A stretch of 64,000 nt of DNA from an uncultured delta proteobacterium (lineage in GTDB: Bacteria > Desulfobacterota > Binatia > UBA9968), in the NCBI GenBank assembly GCA_963771465.1, contig CAVYTU010000017.1, forward strand, positions 928,001 through 992,000, read 5' to 3'. Each line of letters starts with the position of its first letter. Position 1 is the stretch's first letter. The notes under the pieces are model-generated. The model had not been told where the DNA came from. It did not search any database and saw only the letters and a list, made by a program, of their open reading frames with translations. A program made the position numbers and the translations under genes. Below, piece after piece: positions 15,646 to 23,087 of the stretch.

Positions 15646-16282
15646 TCGGCGGAGATCATCCCATTAGCACAGTGTTGCCCGAAGAACTGTTGAGGCACGG
15701 CGAAAATACGGCGATCTGATATTTCCCAGAAGATCGTCATAGACTAAAGACGCAAGATTTATTCACGGCGTCGATTTTTTGAAAAAATTCAGCGCCTCAC
15801 CGCCGCTACGCCGAGGCACGCCCCGAATTGAGCGAATGGCAAGTCATCAGGGCGAGAACTATCAGGGCGGCGTCAAAATCACGGCTACAGACCTGCGAAA
15901 CGTGTTTGCGACGGTCGTCATGGACAACGTAAGGAATCCGATACGGCGCGCCGACTCATGCGGCATACTTCGCTTCAGACGACGACGAAATATATGAGGT
16001 TGGTCAAAGACCGAATGCAAGATGCCGTCAAATTCTTGGGTAATTCCTTGGAGGCAAGTCTTGGGGGTAGATTTGGGGGCAACTTCCAACGTAAAAATGC
16101 TCAAAACGACATCATGCGCGAACTCCCTGCTACGGCTTGCTAAAACGCGAACCGCAGCAGGAATTCCGCGTTTCCCCTCGGTAAATCTTGTTGGCCTGGA
16201 GGGGAGAGTTGGTGGCGGTGGCGGGAGTCGAACCTGCGACGCCGCGGATATGAGCCGTCCGGTCAGGAAGAAAAGTAATTGA
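15646..16282 (+). pseudogene. Degraded C-terminal half of a tyrosine integrase, paralogous to 21285-22298
   Basis: Multi-frame fragments LIFPRRSS*TK, KIYSRRRFFEKI, ITATDLRNVFAT, MRHTSLQTTTKYMRLVKDRM match the intact integrase. Confidence 0.85.
16210..16257 (-). repeat. Displaced tRNA-Met 3' half (att site)
   Basis: 48-bp repeat of 22241-22288 with 42/48 identity; identical 21-bp core CGACGCCGCGGATATGAGCCG spanning the anticodon loop. Confidence 0.9.
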
Positions 16283-16302
16283 TTTATAAGTCTTTTTTCC
16301 AC

Positions 16303-16326
16303 CGGGGGCCACACCTGGGGGCCATC
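16303..16326 (+). repeat. Putative integrase arm-type sites
   Basis: GGGGGCCAC-N4-GGGGGCCATC; same pair and spacing as at 22115-22137. Confidence 0.6.
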
Positions 16327-16382
16327 CTAGCCAAAAAACGGCGTTTAGCGGGTCGAAACAACGCCATTGATGCGGTCTACGC

Positions 16383-16820
16383 ATGAGCGACGCACTACCA
16401 CCGCCAAAGAGCCGTCGTGAATACCAGAAGCACGGCACACACACACGAGACAAGCGCTTGCGGTCGCGTGGTCTTAGTGGAATCGACGGCAGAACTTCCG
16501 AAGGCCGCGAAGCGCTAAGCTGGCGCGATGCCGTGCTCAAATTGAAAGGTGGTGCCGCGTGTTCGTTCGCCGTCAAGACCGAAATCAAGCTGGCTTGCTT
16601 CGATCTTTTTCGGTTGTTGCACTTGCAATCGTACATGATCGCCGATTGCAACCACCGGCTAACGCTGGTCAACCGGCGCAAGCGCGAGCTGCCACGCATT
16701 CATGAGCAGTACGCCGAAATCGATCATCGGTTCTCGCGCCGCGTTGAAGGGTTGGACTTAGGCAAGGTGCCGCCGATGGACCTCGCGTCGAGATTGGCGC
16801 AAGCGACGGCGGAGCGATGA
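16383..16820 (+). CDS. Hypothetical protein (mobile-element type)
   Basis: 145-aa ORF; basic N-terminus with KHG and IDGRT motifs. Confidence 0.6.
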   Translation: MSDALPPPKSRREYQKHGTHTRDKRLRSRGLSGIDGRTSEGREALSWRDAVLKLKGGAACSFAVKTEIKLACFDLFRLLHLQSYMIADCNHRLTLVNRRKRELPRIHEQYAEIDHRFSRRVEGLDLGKVPPMDLASRLAQATAER

Positions 16821-16847
16821 GTAAACAATATCGCGTCGAAATGTTTC

Positions 16848-16958
16848 TTATCCCACTCGCTCCAACATAATCGCACAGAGTAAATAGAAGACAAACGCCA
16901 GCACGATGAGTATCAAAACCTCCCACGGTCGCCATTCTCTCACCTTCCAAGATTGCAT
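16848..16958 (-). CDS. Small membrane protein (36 aa)
   Basis: MQSWKVREWRPWEVLILIVLAFVFYLLCAIMLERVG; single TM; below the ORF-track cutoff. Confidence 0.35.
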   Translation of the reverse strand: MQSWKVREWRPWEVLILIVLAFVFYLLCAIMLERVG

Positions 16959-17330
16959 AAGCCCATGCCTGATGGGATCAGTGTTTTGCATACTGTTCCA
17001 TCTTAGTGCGGAGGCCCACTTCGGAAATCCCCGGTGGATAGTGGCCCAATTGCGACTCAGCGGTGTCCCAATTCGGCTTCACCGAAAGCAATGAGATCAG
17101 GGACAAGCAAGCAAACAACAGCGCCAGCAGTGTCCTTGTATTCATATATGCTCTCCGGTCTCGCGAGTTCCCGCAGACAAGAAATTCGGCCCTCCGGAAC
17201 TCGTCGGATTTCAAGTCTCATCTGCTCCCAGATAATTGCAGTATGCGTGACGGTTTCTGTCTAATATTAGACAGTTCCAAAAATATTTCGTTCGCGATTG
17301 GCGCAAGCGGTGGCAAGAGAGAGATGGATC

Positions 17331-17549
17331 ATGAGTCGTAAAGATATTGAGATTATCGAAGCAGAGACACGGCGGCTGGAAGCGCTCGGCATCGTCTTGG
17401 GCATGTTGGGATTGAAAGAGCCGAAGCGAGCCGGACGACGGCGCATGTACGTCACCGAAGCGGACCGGCAGAGAGCCTACCGAAAACGCAAGTCAGAGAA
17501 AGTCCGTGACTTGCAAAAACGTTCGCCCAGCAGCGTTGCAAGCTCGTGA
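17331..17549 (+). CDS. Small basic hypothetical protein, possibly DNA-binding
   Basis: GRRRMYVTEADRQRAYRKRK motif. Confidence 0.45.
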   Translation: MSRKDIEIIEAETRRLEALGIVLGMLGLKEPKRAGRRRMYVTEADRQRAYRKRKSEKVRDLQKRSPSSVASS

Positions 17550-17825
17550 ATTCGTTGAAGTCTGTTGTTACGAAATTCGGCCAAATCGGTGAAGTGGCAC
17601 ATTACCATTTACCGGGGGAAACGTTACGAAATAAGGCGATAGCGATAGAGGTGATTGACGATGAGTTTTGATCTTAAAAGTTGGAGTGAAGCGAACGGTT
17701 TCGCCTATTCTCCTTTTGGTTATCAACACACCGGCAAGATGGACAGCGATGTGATCTGCCGGGAGGGTTTAATCACCACAAGCGACGATGTGAACGGCTG
17801 GTTGCAATCGTTTCCGCAGATGAGC

Positions 17826-18086
17826 CTATGATGAGAAGCCAGCTATTCCAGTTCCAGCGTAACCGTCCCTGTTACTGTCAACCCAATCTTTGGCGAAAAT
17901 ATAGGCCGCCCTTTCAGCGTCTTTATATCTGTCAAAACTTCTCTCGAAGGCCCACTCCATCCAGAGCTTAACACGCTCCTGGCCGTTTTCGGTCCAGCTA
18001 ATTTTGGCAACAGGTTTAAAACCAATGCTGTCGTGAAAGGCGGAGGCACTGGACCGGATCAAGAACCCTTTGTAAGTTTGTTCCAT
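17826..18086 (-). CDS. Hypothetical protein
   Basis: MEQTYKGFLIRSSA... ORF with GGAG RBS. Confidence 0.55.
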   Translation of the reverse strand: MEQTYKGFLIRSSASAFHDSIGFKPVAKISWTENGQERVKLWMEWAFERSFDRYKDAERAAYIFAKDWVDSNRDGYAGTGIAGFSS

Positions 18087-18259
18087 TTCTCCACGGTAAA
18101 TCAACCGCCACGAGATTTCTGTCCAATACTGAACCAGACTTTAAAAAAAATTTAGGATACTATCAATTCGCCGGGAAGTGTGGACCAACGGCCATTTTAG
18201 CGCCGCAAGAAAGCGATGAGCAATGCTTAAACCAAAAGAGGGCCGGGCATGAAAAAACT

Positions 18260-18547
18260 TTATCTGATCTCTACGTCTCCTGCTTCACGTAAAGTCTTAC
18301 CGATTAACTTCCCTTTGTTAGCGTAAAGAAACGCAAAGTTGGTATCCCTAAAATTTTTCTTCCATAGGCAATTGCCAATACCCCAGGAAAGAACAATGCT
18401 AATTCCTGCGGGATGTGCGGGTTGAATGTTCTGGATTATTAAGCCGAGCAACTCGAACGTCGCTGGTATTAACGCCCCTGCCGCACCGACGGAAAAAAGT
18501 TTTGGCCAGGGAGACAATTCTTTATGGTTCCGTAAAAGCATCGGCAC
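18260..18547 (-). CDS. Hypothetical protein
   Basis: 95-aa ORF ending IGKTLREAGDVEI. Confidence 0.45.
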   Translation of the reverse strand: MPMLLRNHKELSPWPKLFSVGAAGALIPATFELLGLIIQNIQPAHPAGISIVLSWGIGNCLWKKNFRDTNFAFLYANKGKLIGKTLREAGDVEIR

Positions 18548-18698
18548 GTTTCTAAGCTTTGATGATACACGAAGCGGTCATCGCCGCCAAGGACGACGGA
18601 AACTCTCGTTGATGTTTCGGTGAGGACGATCCGAGTTGGGCCAAAGACGCAGCTATCGGTGAGAAGATGATAACGCTCGGTCTGAGAACCGTGACCTG

Positions 18699-19019
18699 TT
18701 AGAAAATTCCCAAAAGTCTTCGGACTTCTACCGCGCTGTTATCCAACAAGTAGTATCCGATTTGCCATCCGCGTTGATCGTATGCGAGATCGTCCTTGGT
18801 GACTTCGATCACGGTGACTACGACAAACCAAAACGCAAGCGAAAGGACGGCGCGGTCTGCGGGGTGTGGGAACTCTGGTGCGCTTACCAGAGATTGGTTT
18901 TCAAGTCGGTGTCTCAATCGGAGACCTAAAGTCGCGTAACAAAATTTTAGCGATTTCTCGGCAGCGAGCTTTCCATCACCGTCAGCAGATTTGAGCAACC
19001 AGATTCTCGCCATTGGCAC
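18699..19019 (-). CDS. Hypothetical protein
   Basis: 106-aa ORF co-oriented with neighbours. Confidence 0.45.
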   Translation of the reverse strand: MPMARIWLLKSADGDGKLAAEKSLKFCYATLGLRLRHRLENQSLVSAPEFPHPADRAVLSLAFWFVVVTVIEVTKDDLAYDQRGWQIGYYLLDNSAVEVRRLLGIF

Positions 19020-19147
19020 CGTTATGCAGCTTTCAGGACTTTCATTGGAGAGGCCCAGATATCAGTCGGTGCAGGAAAGCGCAAACGCTAGACGTCGCGG
19101 TTCTGCTCATGCAGCGGGCGGCATGGTAGCGATGTATCAGTGTGTTG

Positions 19148-19387
19148 CTAATCTGACTTACGAGCAGCCGTGATCGCCTTTGCGATTTCTTCAACGGCTT
19201 CAGGATAGACTGTGGCGGCTATGAACAGAAGTCTCTCCGCGTCTTCTATATCGCAGCGAATTTCTAATACACGTTCGAAATGATCTTCTTTGTATCTGCG
19301 AACAATGACGCCGTTATTGAGGATCGCAAATTCGCGTGAGGCCGGGTCGCACTTATCGACAAAGCCCTCATAAACGAGCAGTGTCAT
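19148..19387 (-). CDS. Hypothetical protein
   Basis: MTLLVYEGFVDKCDPASREFAILNNG... ORF. Confidence 0.5.
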   Translation of the reverse strand: MTLLVYEGFVDKCDPASREFAILNNGVIVRRYKEDHFERVLEIRCDIEDAERLLFIAATVYPEAVEEIAKAITAARKSD

Positions 19388-19645
19388 CAGAATGGTGGCT
19401 TGCACGGCGCAGACTTGTATAGAAATCGCCCACACCTGTCAACGAGCCAAAGTAAGAACAGCGACAATTTGAGACAGCGTTACACAAGTACCCCGACAAA
19501 TAACGCTTCGCGCGGAAGGCAGCACCAACGAACTAATCGGTGGACGTGAACCGTCTTGTAAACTTTGCTCGTGGTGCGAGATTGTGAACACTACAAGTCA
19601 GCGACGGCTGGTGAAATTGTGCCGTAAGCGGCTGAATGCTAGATT

Positions 19646-20284
19646 ATGGCTATGGACGATTGCTGTCAGTTAAAAGCGGGCGAACTCACGTCATTACGCA
19701 ACCAGCACCGGAACGTTCTCGTTTTCGTGTTGGTCATCAACGCCGTCTTATTCCTTGTAGAGGTTGCAGCCGGTTTGTTGGCGAACTCGACCGCATTGCT
19801 GGCTGATAGTCTCGACATGCTTGGCGATTCGCTCGTATACGGATTTAGCATGTACGTGCTTGGGCGTAGCGCGAAATGGAAGGCCAAGGTGGCGCTGCTG
19901 AAAGGCGCGATAATGGCCATGTTCGGCGCAGTCGTTCTCTTGGAAGCGGCTCACAAGACAATCGCTGGTACGGTGCCGACTGCTGAGACTATGGGAGTTA
20001 TCGGGACACTGGTGTTGCTCGGTAACGGTATTTGCTTCTTTTTGCTTTTTCGCCACCGGTCCGATGACATAAACATGCGCTCAACGTGGCTGTGTTCGCG
20101 CAACGACATCATCGCGAATGTGTCGGTGATTGTGGCCGCGATTTGGGTAAAACTCCTTGACGCGAGTTGGCCGGATATTCTCGTCGGAGTCGCCATCTCT
20201 GCTTTGTTCATGCGAAGCGCTATCACAGTGCTTCGCGACTCGCTATCGGAACTGCAAATGCGAAGGACCGCAGTCTCCGACTAG
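19646..20284 (+). CDS. Cation diffusion facilitator-type (Co/Zn/Cd) transporter, short form
   Basis: ALLADSLDMLGD, DINMRSTWLCSRND, WPDILVG; N-terminal DDCC. Confidence 0.88.
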   Translation: MAMDDCCQLKAGELTSLRNQHRNVLVFVLVINAVLFLVEVAAGLLANSTALLADSLDMLGDSLVYGFSMYVLGRSAKWKAKVALLKGAIMAMFGAVVLLEAAHKTIAGTVPTAETMGVIGTLVLLGNGICFFLLFRHRSDDINMRSTWLCSRNDIIANVSVIVAAIWVKLLDASWPDILVGVAISALFMRSAITVLRDSLSELQMRRTAVSD

Positions 20285-20341
20285 GCCGTTTGAGACTCCG
20301 CTTCGACTTGACGGACTTTGGGCACCTGTTAGATTACCATC

Positions 20342-20830
20342 ATGAACAGGCGAGATTTTCTTATTCAGGGTTTTGTTTTGGCTGCTGCTGTCTCGCTGCC
20401 GGAGTTAGTCTTTGGGGCGACGCAACACGCCTACAAACTAGCGCCAACCTCAATCCTGCCGGAACAGATTAGGAAAGGCCCGGTCGAAACAAGAGATGCC
20501 TATCGCTTCGCCGTCCTAAACCGAGACGTTCTCCGCTATATTCCCTGTTACTGTGGCTGTTGGGACTCGGTTGGGCATACGAGCAACGCTTCGTGCTACG
20601 TCAAGGACAAATCTCCTATAGACAAACCGGAGTTTGATCCTATGAGCGTTGGCTGACAAATTTGCATAGACATCACGCGTGACGTGATGAAGCTGATGGA
20701 CGAAGGCAGGAGATTGAAAGACATCAGACTGCATATCGAGAAAACGCACAGTCAGAAAGGACCAGGCACCCCGACGCCAGCGGTGCCGGAGAGTTACAAA
20801 GAATTTTGGCCGGTAAGAAAGCGAGGTTAG
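20342..20830 (+). CDS. PCYCGC-domain protein with Tat signal; in-frame UGA (20654-20656) likely selenocysteine
   Basis: MNRRDFL Tat motif and IPCYCGC...GHTSNASCY. After TGA the frame continues QICIDITRDVMKLMDEGRRLKDIRLHIEK...GTPTP to TAG at 20830. Confidence 0.8.
20657..20689 (+). promoter_or_regulatory. Putative bacterial SECIS element
   Basis: Perfect 7-bp stem CATCACG/CGTGATG with loop CGTGA; loop starts after a 21-nt spacer from the UGA. Confidence 0.65.
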
Positions 20831-20832
20831 CT

Positions 20833-21084
20833 ATGAAGAAAATGCTATTCGGAATTCTTGGAGGCTTGCTAATTGCCACAGCAGTCGGCGCATATCAGGC
20901 CGAAGATAAGAAAAGTGAGTCGCCGATGGGCGGAATGATGCAGGGCATGAAGATGATGGGTGAACAGTCGCCTGAGATGACGCAACAGATGAAAGAAATG
21001 ATGGCTCGGATGTCCAAAATGATGGATATGTGCAGCCAGATGATGAGTAATAATCGGTCAAATCAGCAGCCAGAAAATAAGTAA
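20833..21084 (+). CDS. Secreted Met-rich small protein (possible Cu/Ag binding)
   Basis: Signal peptide MKKMLFGILGGLLIATAVGA, then very Met-rich sequence; starts 2 nt after the read-through stop of the upstream gene. Confidence 0.7.
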   Translation: MKKMLFGILGGLLIATAVGAYQAEDKKSESPMGGMMQGMKMMGEQSPEMTQQMKEMMARMSKMMDMCSQMMSNNRSNQQPENK

Positions 21085-21284
21085 GTTCTTCCTGGCAAGT
21101 TCCGTTGTTGAAAACGTGCGGTTATGAAAGATCGCGCGATAAATTGCGTGCGCGGCTGATGGCTTCAAGACCATCCGCCTGCACCACCGGAAGCGCTGGC
21201 CAACGTCGTATCGCGCTACCTCGTCGATAGCGCCGATCCATCGGTAGGTAGGTCGCAACACCGGATAACGCGCTTTTCTGGAAC

Positions 21285-22298
21285 ATGAACAAGTTCGTAC
21301 TTAAATTTTTCGGCGAGACGACTCTAGTCGGCAACATCAAGGATGAGCAGATCAACGAGTTCATCAAGAAATATCGGCAAGGTCGAAAGCCAAAGACCAT
21401 GAAAAATATTTTCACAGACCTGAATGCGTTGCTTAACTACGCGGTGCAAAAAAAACTCTTAAAAGTGAATCCGGCAAACTTCGCCAACCGCGAACTTATC
21501 GGCAACACCAAGAGCAAAAAGCCTCAGCTTAACTTGGACGAAGTCCGAATGGCGTTGTCGGTGCTCAATGACAAGAGAGTGCTCAAGCGAGAGCGGGTAT
21601 GGTTTCTGGTCGGGATCATGACCGGTGGTCGGATGGACGAAGTAAATCGTGCGCAGTGGCCGGATGTTGATTGGACTGCGCGCGAAATCCATATACGCGG
21701 CACCAAAACCGATTCTGCCGACGCCAAGCTGCCGATTCCGCCGCCGCTGTTCGCCGAGTTGGTCGATCTCTACCGGCATAGAGAAACCTCAGACTATATT
21801 TTTCCTGGCGCGTCTTCGCAGACGAAAAATAAGAAAATCTACTCGCGCCGTCGTCTGTTCGAAAAGATACGCAAACTAGTCTTCGAACGGTACGACCGGC
21901 ATATCAAGCTTACGCCGAAAGATTTGCGCGATATCTACGCAACCGACGTGTCGGCGCTAGTTCGCGATCCGGAAACGCTCATGCACTTAATGCGGCACAG
22001 CAGCTTGACCACGACCACGAAGTATCTGCGCGGGGTAAAAGACCGCATGGTGGAAGCGGCGAAGGGCGTTGGTCAACAGTGGGTTCCGGCGCTTACTGAC
22101 GACGAAAAAAGCCTGGGGGCCACCTCTGGGGGCCATCTTGGGGTCGAAATAGTGCCTAAAAGGCCGCAAAACGCACAAAGCGACACGGCCAGATTGTCGC
22201 CGGAAAATCCGCTAACTACTCGGAATACATGGGGAAAAATTGGTGGCGGTGGACAGAGTCGAACTGTCGACGCCGCGGATATGAGCCGCGTGCTCTGA
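21285..22298 (+). CDS. Tyrosine recombinase/integrase; probably N-terminally truncated, 3' end overlaps tRNA-Met antisense
   Basis: TGGRMDE (R), GTKT (K), PKDLRD, LMRHS, TTKY (Y); stop codon lies inside the tRNA gene. Confidence 0.88.
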   Translation: MNKFVLKFFGETTLVGNIKDEQINEFIKKYRQGRKPKTMKNIFTDLNALLNYAVQKKLLKVNPANFANRELIGNTKSKKPQLNLDEVRMALSVLNDKRVLKRERVWFLVGIMTGGRMDEVNRAQWPDVDWTAREIHIRGTKTDSADAKLPIPPPLFAELVDLYRHRETSDYIFPGASSQTKNKKIYSRRRLFEKIRKLVFERYDRHIKLTPKDLRDIYATDVSALVRDPETLMHLMRHSSLTTTTKYLRGVKDRMVEAAKGVGQQWVPALTDDEKSLGATSGGHLGVEIVPKRPQNAQSDTARLSPENPLTTRNTWGKIGGGGQSRTVDAADMSRVL

Positions 22299-22317
22299 CC
22301 AACTGAGCTACACCGCC
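22241..22317 (-). tRNA. tRNA-Met (CAT), elongator-type
   Basis: GGCGGTGTAGCTCAGTTGGTCAGAGCACGCGGCTCATATCCGCGGCGTCGACAGTTCGACTCTGTCCACCGCCACCA; full cloverleaf, paired 1:72, CCA encoded (Ile2 not strictly excluded). Confidence 0.93.
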
Positions 22318-22361
22318 ACAAGGTGGCTAAAGGAAGATGGGAGTTTGAAAAGATCACGCCG

Positions 22362-23087
22362 TTAGGAAAGCGCGCGAACGGCATCCCACTTTCGTTGCAT
22401 CAAGGTTCGATTGACGCGCTTTTTTCCTCGACCGATCTGATACAGAACTTTCTCATCAACGTCCAAGCAAGTCAACATGTTGCCGTACACCAGACCGGTA
22501 TCGAGACCAACCTTATACGGTAGATCGAAGTAGACCGTGTGCTGTGGCGTGTGCCCGAACAGCACCGTGTAGGGCAGCTTGTGCGATGCGAAGATAAATT
22601 TATTGCGAATCCAAAATAACTCCTCTTCGGTTTGTTCTGCGAACGTCTTCGCTGGATCTATGCCGGCATGCACGCATAAGAACGGTTCCATTAGAAAATA
22701 GTTTTGTAAATGGCGATAAAATTCCAAATGATCGCCAGGGATGACCCGATGGGCCTCGAGTGCAGACGGACTGTCGGGGTTCAGGCCATAGCTTGCCATC
22801 GTCGCCCTGCCGCCATTGATGAGAAACATATCGCCATGGGCGCCGCCGATTTCCAGGAAAGACAAGAGCATGTCCTCGTGGTTGCCTTTTAGGAAGATCA
22901 GCTCAACAGCACTCAATTGTTTCTTGAGATCGAGGAGAAACGAAACCACGCCGCGTGAATCAGGGCCGCGGTCGATATAGTCGCCGAGAAACACCAATCG
23001 GTCGCCGCGCGCCAGTGGTAAGCGGTCGATTAAATAACGGAGCTCATCGGCACAGCCGTGAATATCACCGATTACAAAACTCTTCAT
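22362..23087 (-). CDS. Metallophosphoesterase (Ser/Thr protein phosphatase PphA-like)
   Basis: GDIHG, GDYIDRGPDS, KGNHE, VHAG, FGHTP, LDTG. Confidence 0.92.
   Translation of the reverse strand: MKSFVIGDIHGCADELRYLIDRLPLARGDRLVFLGDYIDRGPDSRGVVSFLLDLKKQLSAVELIFLKGNHEDMLLSFLEIGGAHGDMFLINGGRATMASYGLNPDSPSALEAHRVIPGDHLEFYRHLQNYFLMEPFLCVHAGIDPAKTFAEQTEEELFWIRNKFIFASHKLPYTVLFGHTPQHTVYFDLPYKVGLDTGLVYGNMLTCLDVDEKVLYQIGRGKKRVNRTLMQRKWDAVRALS

Follow-up and report, generated by a model that had tools for sequence, protein, structure and literature searches.

Why would an integrase gene run without a stop codon through the very site at which its element recombines, and what becomes of its C-terminus when the element integrates? 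This question is raised by a 64,000-nt stretch of DNA from an uncultured delta proteobacterium (GTDB lineage Bacteria; Desulfobacterota; Binatia; UBA9968; assembly GCA_963771465.1, contig CAVYTU010000017.1, positions 928,001 to 992,000 of the forward strand), which is referred to as the window in the following. Here, the open reading frame (ORF) of a tyrosine integrase (337 aa; 21285..22298, plus strand), which belongs to a 6,031-bp genomic island termed E2 (16258..22288), overlaps a gene for tRNA-Met with the anticodon CAU (22241..22317, minus strand) that was identified by ARAGORN and by the Rfam tRNA model (65.7 bits). The final 58 nt of the ORF are antisense to this tRNA over a stretch that reaches from the CCA end into the D-arm, and the C-terminus reads ...GGGGQSRTVDAADMSRVL, that is ...DAADMSRVL followed by TGA. 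An initial annotation, made from the sequence alone, had described the integrase as running antisense through the tRNA 3' half and a 21-bp core to this ending, and the coordinates and both tRNA searches agree with it; everything it says about the sequence proved correct.

Comparing the window with itself yielded a 57-nt direct repeat (16201-16257 and 22232-22288, 84% identity) with an exact 21-bp block in each copy. One block lies at the integrase/tRNA junction and represents the crossover region (22268..22288), the other at the far end of the island (16237..16257), and E2 runs from the base after the far-end block through the junction block. In terms of tRNA structure, the block takes in the variable loop, the anticodon loop together with the 3' anticodon stem, and the beginning of the 5' stem. 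From its 3' end to the anticodon stem, the tRNA-Met sequence was contributed by the island, and the TGA at 22296-22298 falls beyond the block, in D-arm/D-loop sequence of the host that is read antisense. The integrated ORF consequently ends with Val, Leu and this TGA (22290..22298, plus strand), the stop being the antisense of the tRNA D-loop. At the left copy of the block the integrase frame reads ...DAADMSRPVRKKSN and stops, an ending that can be read directly in window DNA as part of the ORF 16022..16282 (...GGGGGSRTCDAADMSRPVRKKSN and stop). Following the core, the excised circle would contain the codons PVRKKSN and TGA (16259..16282, plus strand), and the alternative ending that had been proposed for the other island end is thus legible in the window itself, at 16259-16282. 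On the DNA sequence, it is the junction that determines where the window integrase ORF stops and with which residues it ends: the difference is confined to what follows ...DAADMSR, and the catalytic domain and the extension stay together on one side. The genome has 44 tRNAs, three of which carry CAU, and only one of these three has a C1/A72 mismatch. The tRNA at 22241..22317 carries a G1-C72 pair and is presumably the elongator tRNA-Met, as the mismatch is typical of initiators by textbook rules.

Is the protein an integrase at all? The window ORF consists of a partial core-binding domain, a catalytic domain and an 88-aa C-terminal extension. PF00589 matched residues 82-249 with 49.6 bits (cut-off 27.1), and the closest solved relative of the family profile was XerA (4a8e, E 2e-23). 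R116, K141, R215, H238 and Y247 were invariant in 23 sequences. The KxxR found in place of the HxxR box, which had already been noted, is a real and family-wide trait: K212 and R215 occur in all 23 sequences, and KDLRD aligns with HQLRH of XerA 4a8e. Judged by the PF00589 match and the kinship with XerA, the catalytic domain is that of a bona fide tyrosine recombinase. The family as such comprises unnamed tyrosine integrases from soil-type metagenome-assembled genomes. All curated NCBIfam equivalogs for Xer and integron integrases scored below their cut-offs (at best XerA_Arch, 59 bits vs 220; XerC/XerD about 40 vs about 330). A tblastn search of 50,697 phage records (E<=1e-5) with the 423-aa homolog P0002 retrieved seven records at 23.5-25.5% identity, none of them from a myxophage, and there was no relative among the IMG/VR viral contigs, which indicates that the elements are not catalogued viruses.

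The read-through might simply reflect the chance loss of a stop codon in this single copy, an explanation to which the pseudogene state of the window integrase (see below) would lend itself; most homologs should then stop before the tRNA. A word-indexed homolog search gave 129 relatives, 120 of which were listed. Among the matches listed, with the window's own protein excluded, 100 of 119 end with D.ADMSRVL, six cross the core into other sequence and 13 are without the core motif. This search is biased, as words from the tail can seed candidates. In the tail-blind control, a phmmer search with residues 1-257 only against 1.84 billion cluster representatives, the frame enters a tRNA in 12 of the 21 best-scoring representatives (E<=1e-30); nine of these end in VL, two have the Met core followed by another tail and one has a core of the tRNA-Val type with another tail. 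The other nine comprise four short proteins, four with other long tails and one fragment. All 78 tail-blind matches with E<=1e-10 divide into 14 with VL, four with the core and another tail, 20 with other long tails, 15 short ones and 25 without a recognisable Tyr motif. Finally, a scan of metagenome DNA with the patterns D[AS]ADMSRVL and box I gave 79 loci, and the Tyr motif was present in 42 of them. Thirty-three of the 42 read into a tRNA, namely tRNA-Met (23 loci) or, in the same register, tRNA-Val(CAC) (10 loci). Among the tRNA-Met loci, 18 continue to ...VL and stop, three have the core and another tail, and in two the core lies at the contig end. The ten loci of the second kind read ...RTYDLAHVRRAL and stop, the tRNA being tRNA-Val(CAC) in the three that were checked with ARAGORN. 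Read-through at this frequency in three sets of relatives is not chance; the homolog survey refutes the single-copy explanation, to which we attach practically no probability. In the close family, the stop lies beyond the core as a rule, and the trait outlasts the change of target to tRNA-Val. Read in the integrase frame, the CAU anticodon gives, in complement, an in-frame ATG (22281-22283 and 16250-16252), to which GTG corresponds in the tRNA-Val subgroup.

After the catalytic Tyr, the frame is open for about 75-95 codons into the tRNA; measured lengths are 77-126 aa, with the tRNA register kept. We compared the forward frames of 12 loci, including the window, that had been picked for integrase homology upstream of the core. 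The linker is free of stops in the integrase frame, which follows from how the walk was constructed, and averages 3.8 and 2.5 stops in the two alternative forward frames; the integrase frame is continuous from the catalytic Tyr in ten of the 12 loci. In the control set of 28 genome-contig loci, which match the query solely in the tRNA-coded tail (residues 284-337), only 10-80 codons are open upstream of the core in this frame, and several of these loci visibly retain remnants of an integrase tail. At the level of sequence comparison, selection thus keeps the frame open throughout the family and at both tRNA targets.

What, then, is selected? The open frame may be a by-product of compaction: attP lies right behind int, and the P arm and the tRNA would be translated as a functionless, disordered appendage whose state-dependent residues are neutral. 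For the serine recombinase DsiB, McMurdie et al. treated the same idea as the trivial explanation (PMC3146451). A neutral extension should, however, gain stops and frameshifts. The other forward frames do hold 2.5-3.8 stops, whereas the integrase frame is open across lineages of about 40% identity, across linkers of variable length and across the switch from tRNA-Met to tRNA-Val.

The extension itself contains two GGGGGCCA repeats 13 nt apart (22115 and 22128; 22115..22135, plus strand), which encode LGATSGGH and are candidate arm-type sites of the P arm. The same pair recurs just within the other end of the island (16304 and 16317, again 13 nt apart; 16304..16324, plus strand) as candidate sites of the P' arm. 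The 64-kb window has no further copies beyond these four, which are confined to the plus strand and to the two island ends; shuffled sequences held 1.5 copies on average, and four of 100 shuffles reached four. Relative to the cores, the repeats are positioned at -160/-147, counted to GCGGAT (22275) inside the 21-bp block as the reference point, and at +47/+60, counted past the core at the far end. L061, a complete 3.4-kb element from the metagenome loci, has TGGAGGC repeats at -153/-140/-127 and +47/+60, and lineage-specific variants (TTGGGGGCAA, TGGGGGCGATTC, TTGGCGTAAAT and TTGGATNCCAAT) occupy the same place in the linker, with matching variants about 45 nt beyond other junctions. For the N-terminus of P0002, AlphaFold2 predicted strands at residues 4-6, 11-18 and 21-28 together with a helix (predicted local distance difference test score, pLDDT, >80). 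Given such a predicted three-stranded sheet and helix in full-length homologs, the repeats are best read as arm-type sites. The family thus combines the two hallmarks of heterobivalent integrases, a predicted N-terminal domain (P0002) and matching repeats in both arms (window, L061); the window copy itself is without the domain. The attP site would span roughly -165 to +75 (about 240 bp), and the integrase ORF covers the entire P arm, the tRNA segment and the core. An additional short match, GGGTCGAAA, follows the arm repeats at 22139-22152 and 16350-16363 (-134 and +93), which could mark a further protein-binding site of attP or be due to chance.

As a protein, the extension is far less conspicuous. 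The peptide motif 'LGAxLGG', considered as a protein feature, was dropped because it is the arm repeats translated. In 14 pairs from 14 loci, the catalytic domain had a median proportion of synonymous differences (pS) of 0.78, a median proportion of nonsynonymous differences (pN) of 0.16 and a median pN/pS of 0.21; the linker had medians of 0.41, 0.35 and 0.75. The linker is thus weakly constrained as protein, and its lowered pS points to constraint at the DNA level rather than the protein level. Furthermore, AlphaFold2 gave residues 347-423 of P0002 a pLDDT of 29-47, and the extension is predicted to be disordered. The translated arm repeats, the linker ratio of 0.75 with its lowered pS and the pLDDT below 50 all fit the by-product explanation, as do the heterogeneous far-side tails described below and the relatives that stop at ...LG[EK]. 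We regard it as possible, albeit on the doubtful side, the more so as the first codons beyond the crossover change in a third-position-biased manner.

These codons are the ones that depend on the state of the element. The integrated ORF ends in -VL, and the circular form would run 6-31 codons into the P' arm. We found 14 distinct junctions of the tRNA-Met 3' fragment with non-tRNA DNA; further tails are known only as proteins. A group of long acidic tails (L028, L053, L077, L085 at 2955, L061 at 7495, and the protein P0114) shares the consensus x-D-S-[DE]-[SP]-N-[LY]-L-[DE]-L-L-T-E... over 23-26 residues, followed by the P' repeats read as protein (five DNA copies and P0114). Over the first 13 codons of this group, pN/pS is 0.27 in the integrase frame vs 0.85 and 2.62 in the other frames, and the variable columns number 4, 3 and 9 by codon position. 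Related tails are present in P0040 and in P0122, the latter of the tRNA-Val type (...SSNLSETLTE... and ...SPSNPSETQ...). A second group has acidic tails of seven residues and a stop: EDWDESY (L003, L081), EIWDESY (L056) and VLSDEDY (L102). Between L003 and L056, WDESY and the stop are kept through synonymous changes and a switch from TGA to TAG at the same position. Other tails are without pattern (AYRRDN, VAHNFSRDN, VRVPPSNWKQ and a 148-codon run in L021). The initial annotation had called the tail of the excised form basic/polar; this does not hold for the family, whose recurrent tails are acidic, and PVRKKSN is atypical. With its stop, PVRKKSN equals EDWDESY in length, and 14 of 21 nt match by manual count; from the sequence it looks like a decayed tail of the short acidic group. 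No ssrA-like tag was recognised by eye in the far-side tails, and when the tail region of P0114 served as a protein query, its tail was seen in no other database protein (6 matches among 23 candidates). Additional far-end junctions were sought by pattern in 301 genomes of the class and 81 genomes of the family; two genomes matched in each set, and no lineage was added.

We propose the following scheme. Island E2, about 6 kb in size and by now decayed, occupies the anticodon-loop region of a tRNA-Met gene of the elongator type, directly beside an older stump of the same family (tandem accretion). Past the Tyr, the integrase frame is kept open over a P arm with two to three arm-type repeats, then antisense through the element-borne tRNA 3' half and across the crossover. 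The far-side codons would be the real C-terminus of the free-form enzyme, an acidic tail (...DWDESY or ...DSDSNLLDLLTE...) on a disordered tether, and integration would swap this tail for -VL, with consequences for the activity, directionality or stability of the integrase; the gene would then contain its own switch, comparable to IntP/IntX of phage Mx8. In the window the device is dead, the arm-binding N-terminus being lost, the gene frameshifted and the tail decayed to PVRKKSN. We consider the chances evenly balanced that the frame is open because of such a true acidic C-terminus and that its exchange for -VL changes activity, directionality or stability. A more far-reaching version, in which only the excised circle makes the complete enzyme and integration clips it to -VL, would amount to a self-contained switch of directionality or stability without a separate excisionase, kept through the change from tRNA-Met to tRNA-Val; we put this forward tentatively, as it seems distinctly less probable.

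Several observations weigh against a functional tail. Nine of the 42 metagenome loci stop earlier; AVKGLGE and a stop occur 17 aa past the Tyr in the relatives P0125, P0130 and P0137; and the distant relative P0214 uses a different frame with a stop within the anticodon loop. Likewise, three of the four short tail-blind representatives end in ...LG[EK], the fourth, which may be cut, ending 5 aa past the Tyr. The tails are heterogeneous, with several short and unrelated ones (AYRRDN, VAHNFSRDN, PVRKKSN) among the 14 distinct junctions. The codon signature of the long group comes from five DNA sequences, two of them near-identical, and further along, in their distal half, the long tails consist of arm-repeat DNA, for which pN/pS is 1.52. 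For the short tails (three sequences), a pN/pS of 0.20 is indistinguishable from 0.17 in another frame. P0114 is a natural ORF that includes the long acidic tail; in its AlphaFold2 model the tail neither folded nor docked with confidence, the helix at 293-307 reaching a pLDDT of about 53. Integrase ORFs with non-tRNA tails (L003, L056, L102), which could have represented circles, were dropped as such: their P and P' repeats differ, and hybrids within tandem arrays are therefore likelier. Finally, no circular form was seen in soil and rhizosphere metagenome runs, which covered at most 0.39 of the sampled words and of which X1-X4 gave only short contig pieces.

Selection could also act on the RNA, that is, on translation across the att region of about 240 nt and not on the peptide. 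Ribosomes might prevent Rho polarity, allowing transcripts from the int promoter of the circle to reach the genes on the P' side; alternatively, the junction-dependent 3' end could control the decay of the int mRNA, or the mRNA could pair with the tRNA or its transcript. Retroregulation by sib in phage lambda is the model for control of int mRNA decay by the 3' end. Such selection would be in line with the weak protein constraint on the linker and with the wholly different peptides of the tRNA-Met and tRNA-Val subgroups, between which the read-through is nevertheless kept, and the first ORFs at the far ends of L003 and L052 share the orientation of int. In L028 and L053, by contrast, the far-end genes for a HigB-like toxin and a helix-turn-helix (HTH) antitoxin are on the opposite strand, and the far-end ORFs of the window are of doubtful coding value. 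A scan of 20900-22500 detected no promoter-like site and a terminator count at shuffle level, and the codon-like conservation of the far-side tails would be left unexplained. We therefore hold an RNA-level cause to be unlikely.

A further explanation for the far-side codons would be a micro-ORF of their own, starting at the ATG of the anticodon complement (GTG for tRNA-Val) with expression coming from the island's far junction in the integrated state. Elements of both the tRNA-Met and the tRNA-Val type have the anticodon complement in frame, and the coding-like pattern of the next 13 codons would fit. Yet the tRNA fragment contains no evident ribosome-binding motif upstream, no promoter was identified, and the peptides of the short-tail group would be only about ten residues long, which makes a micro-ORF very improbable. 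The acidic C-terminus of the free-form enzyme keeps its place as our preferred reading, at the even chance given above.

How does this layout compare with known systems? The tRNA layout itself is that of a tDNA island (anticodon-centred, Islander class A): an intact tRNA gene (tDNA) and a displaced 3' tDNA fragment bracket an integrase-bearing island. In the sections of the Islander paper and Mx8 sources on which we draw, the integrases of Mx8 and of Sulfolobus spindle-shaped virus (SSV) extend across attP (PMC6070905, PMC4383910), and integration of Mx8 gives int a new 3' end and a different C-terminus that modifies specificity and does not inactivate the enzyme (a review citing Magrini et al.; PMC6070905, PMC4383910). 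As far as these sections describe it, IntP/IntX of Mx8 resembles the window family in being a tyrosine integrase with attP in its gene and a C-terminus changed by integration. The same arrangement is seen in the window, where the core (22268-22288) lies inside the ORF (21285-22298), and in 33 of the 42 metagenome loci. Unlike in Mx8, just the last two residues (integrated) or 6-31 residues (free) differ here, and the targets are tRNA-Met and tRNA-Val. Mx8 uses tRNA-Asp and replaces a far longer C-terminal stretch. No sequence kinship with Mx8 was detected by the tblastn search of P0002 against the 50,697 phage records.

The second close case is the ssrA islands of Dehalococcoides, in which the 3' end of dsiB, according to the portion cited here, always overlaps attL, with the stop in ssrA or in a neighbouring island (McMurdie et al. 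2011, PMC3146451). The authors proposed that DsiB may be fully functional on the circle alone (PMC3146451). In contrast to the window family, DsiB is a serine recombinase with a tmRNA target, and no arm-type sites are involved. In the Burkholderia P2-like phage AP3, as reported in the relevant section, integration into a tRNA swaps the last 33 nt of int for 15 nt of tRNA (PMC5247547). This concerns a single phage with an integrase of another lineage, and that section describes neither a long extension nor a family-wide analysis. The 'suicidal' integrases of the archaeal SSV type have attP inside the gene as a compact int-att module, and integration splits them into Int(N) and Int(C) and inactivates them, as the cited text puts it (PMC8371274). 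Here the catalytic protein stays whole, and PF16795, the Pfam family named in that text, was not among the Pfam matches of the window ORF. In mycobacteriophages with integration-dependent immunity, attP lies in the repressor gene and a degradation tag is removed by integration; here the gene that is crossed is the integrase. Mx8 IntP/IntX and DsiB are closer precedents than the analogies first drawn for this locus, to SSV and to the mycobacteriophage repressors. With these published precedents, a state-dependent function is plausible by analogy. Heterobivalent integrases of the lambda type have an N-terminal beta-sheet domain, followed by the core-binding and catalytic domains, and repeats in both att arms. 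The window family shares the N-terminal sheet, as predicted by AlphaFold2, and direct repeats in both arms; it differs in that the entire P arm lies within the integrase ORF and in the Lys that replaces the first His of HxxR.

The window preserves this arrangement in a decayed state. By tblastn, residues 80-423 of P0002 match 21267-22295 with 64% identity; residues 45-79 are encoded by a displaced N-terminal fragment in another frame (21163..21267, plus strand; tblastn and translation), and residues 1-44, the arm-binding domain, are missing, which bears out that the N-terminus is frameshifted and truncated. The 6.9-Mb genome contains no intact paralog or other copy of the integrase family. From its sequence, the window integrase is a truncated pseudogene; no switch operates here, and the feature is a fossil. 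E2 is the newer part of a tandem array that begins with the remnant of an older island, E1, consisting of an integrase 3' stump and a tRNA 3' fragment, and the E2 integrase abuts the intact tRNA-Met. The stump is spread over two frames (about 15689..16209, plus strand; about 41% identity by tblastn with the integrase of metagenome locus L085). It is orthologous to the intact integrase of this syntenic locus (tblastn match about 15689-16258), where an intact integrase of the E1 type is located at the tRNA. The spacing from tRNA-Met to tRNA-Leu is 8.5 kb in the window and about 8.4-8.7 kb in the metagenome loci L060 and L085. The displaced tRNA 3' fragment (16210..16257, minus strand) was supplied by E1 and is part of the 57-nt repeat of 84% identity; it differs in the T-stem, with compensation. 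Such compensated T-stem variants are specific to each element (16210-16257 vs 22241-22288) and alter the translated peptides (GGGGQSRTVD, GGGGRSRTYD, GGEWSRTTD). As each element brings its own variant, each integration rewrites the T-arm of the apparently sole elongator-type tRNA-Met gene. A joint from 16240 to 22292 in X4 (depth 2, side 23, 20 foreign letters between) was attributed to a different tRNA rather than to an empty site or a circle.

The cargo of E2 includes a gene of the cation diffusion facilitator (CDF) type with the Pfam domain Cation_efflux (19646-20284), a gene with a PCYCGC motif (20342-20656) and a Met-rich small ORF of 92 aa without a Pfam match (20806-21084), and as a whole (19646-21084) it appears metal-related. 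Elements that have the long acidic tail, namely L028 (3144-3712, minus strand) and likewise L053, encode at their far end the HigB-like toxin (PF05015, E 6e-16) with an HTH_3 antitoxin, both opposing the integrase. Beside the junctions of L003 (12218-12790) and at the far end of L052 lie same-strand phage-like ORFs; one of these has a weak match to a terminase large-subunit ATPase (E 8e-4, below the cut-off), and some family members may be prophages. Two kinds of insert occur within the integrases. P0005 and P0017, otherwise different, share a near-identical in-frame insert of about 32 aa (ADILSARNSAL.TGERG.LLANS.PERGS; alignment columns about 470-507) just before the arm-repeat part of the linker, which could be a small frame-keeping mobile insertion. 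A Cys-rich insert of about 50 aa is found in the catalytic domain of P0008, P0012, P0014, P0017, P0019, P0027, P0038 and P0086, between ...FEKIxRLT and GIKLxPKDLRD (alignment columns about 346-400); it has several CxxC pairs, is zinc-ribbon-like and is absent from the window copy.

The layout is already known from a few other elements, and the idea of a state-dependent integrase is in print for Mx8 IntP/IntX, DsiB and AP3. What is new is the family itself with its two tRNA targets, an extension that constitutes the P arm with its arm repeats, and a first, small-sample hint of coding selection on the far-side codons. For annotation, this means that an overlap with a tRNA gene is no reason to trim an integrase ORF as an artefact, and that a 'conserved' peptide motif in such an extension can be a translated DNA binding site. 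With elements of 3.4-8 kb, an attP of about 240 bp, recognisable arm repeats and two tRNA targets, the family is a simple test system. To our knowledge, control by gene geometry, an idea that dates back to the 1990s for Mx8 and to 2011 for DsiB, has rarely been tested. If the far-side tail is functional, directionality control in these elements would be carried in the geometry of the integrase gene itself.

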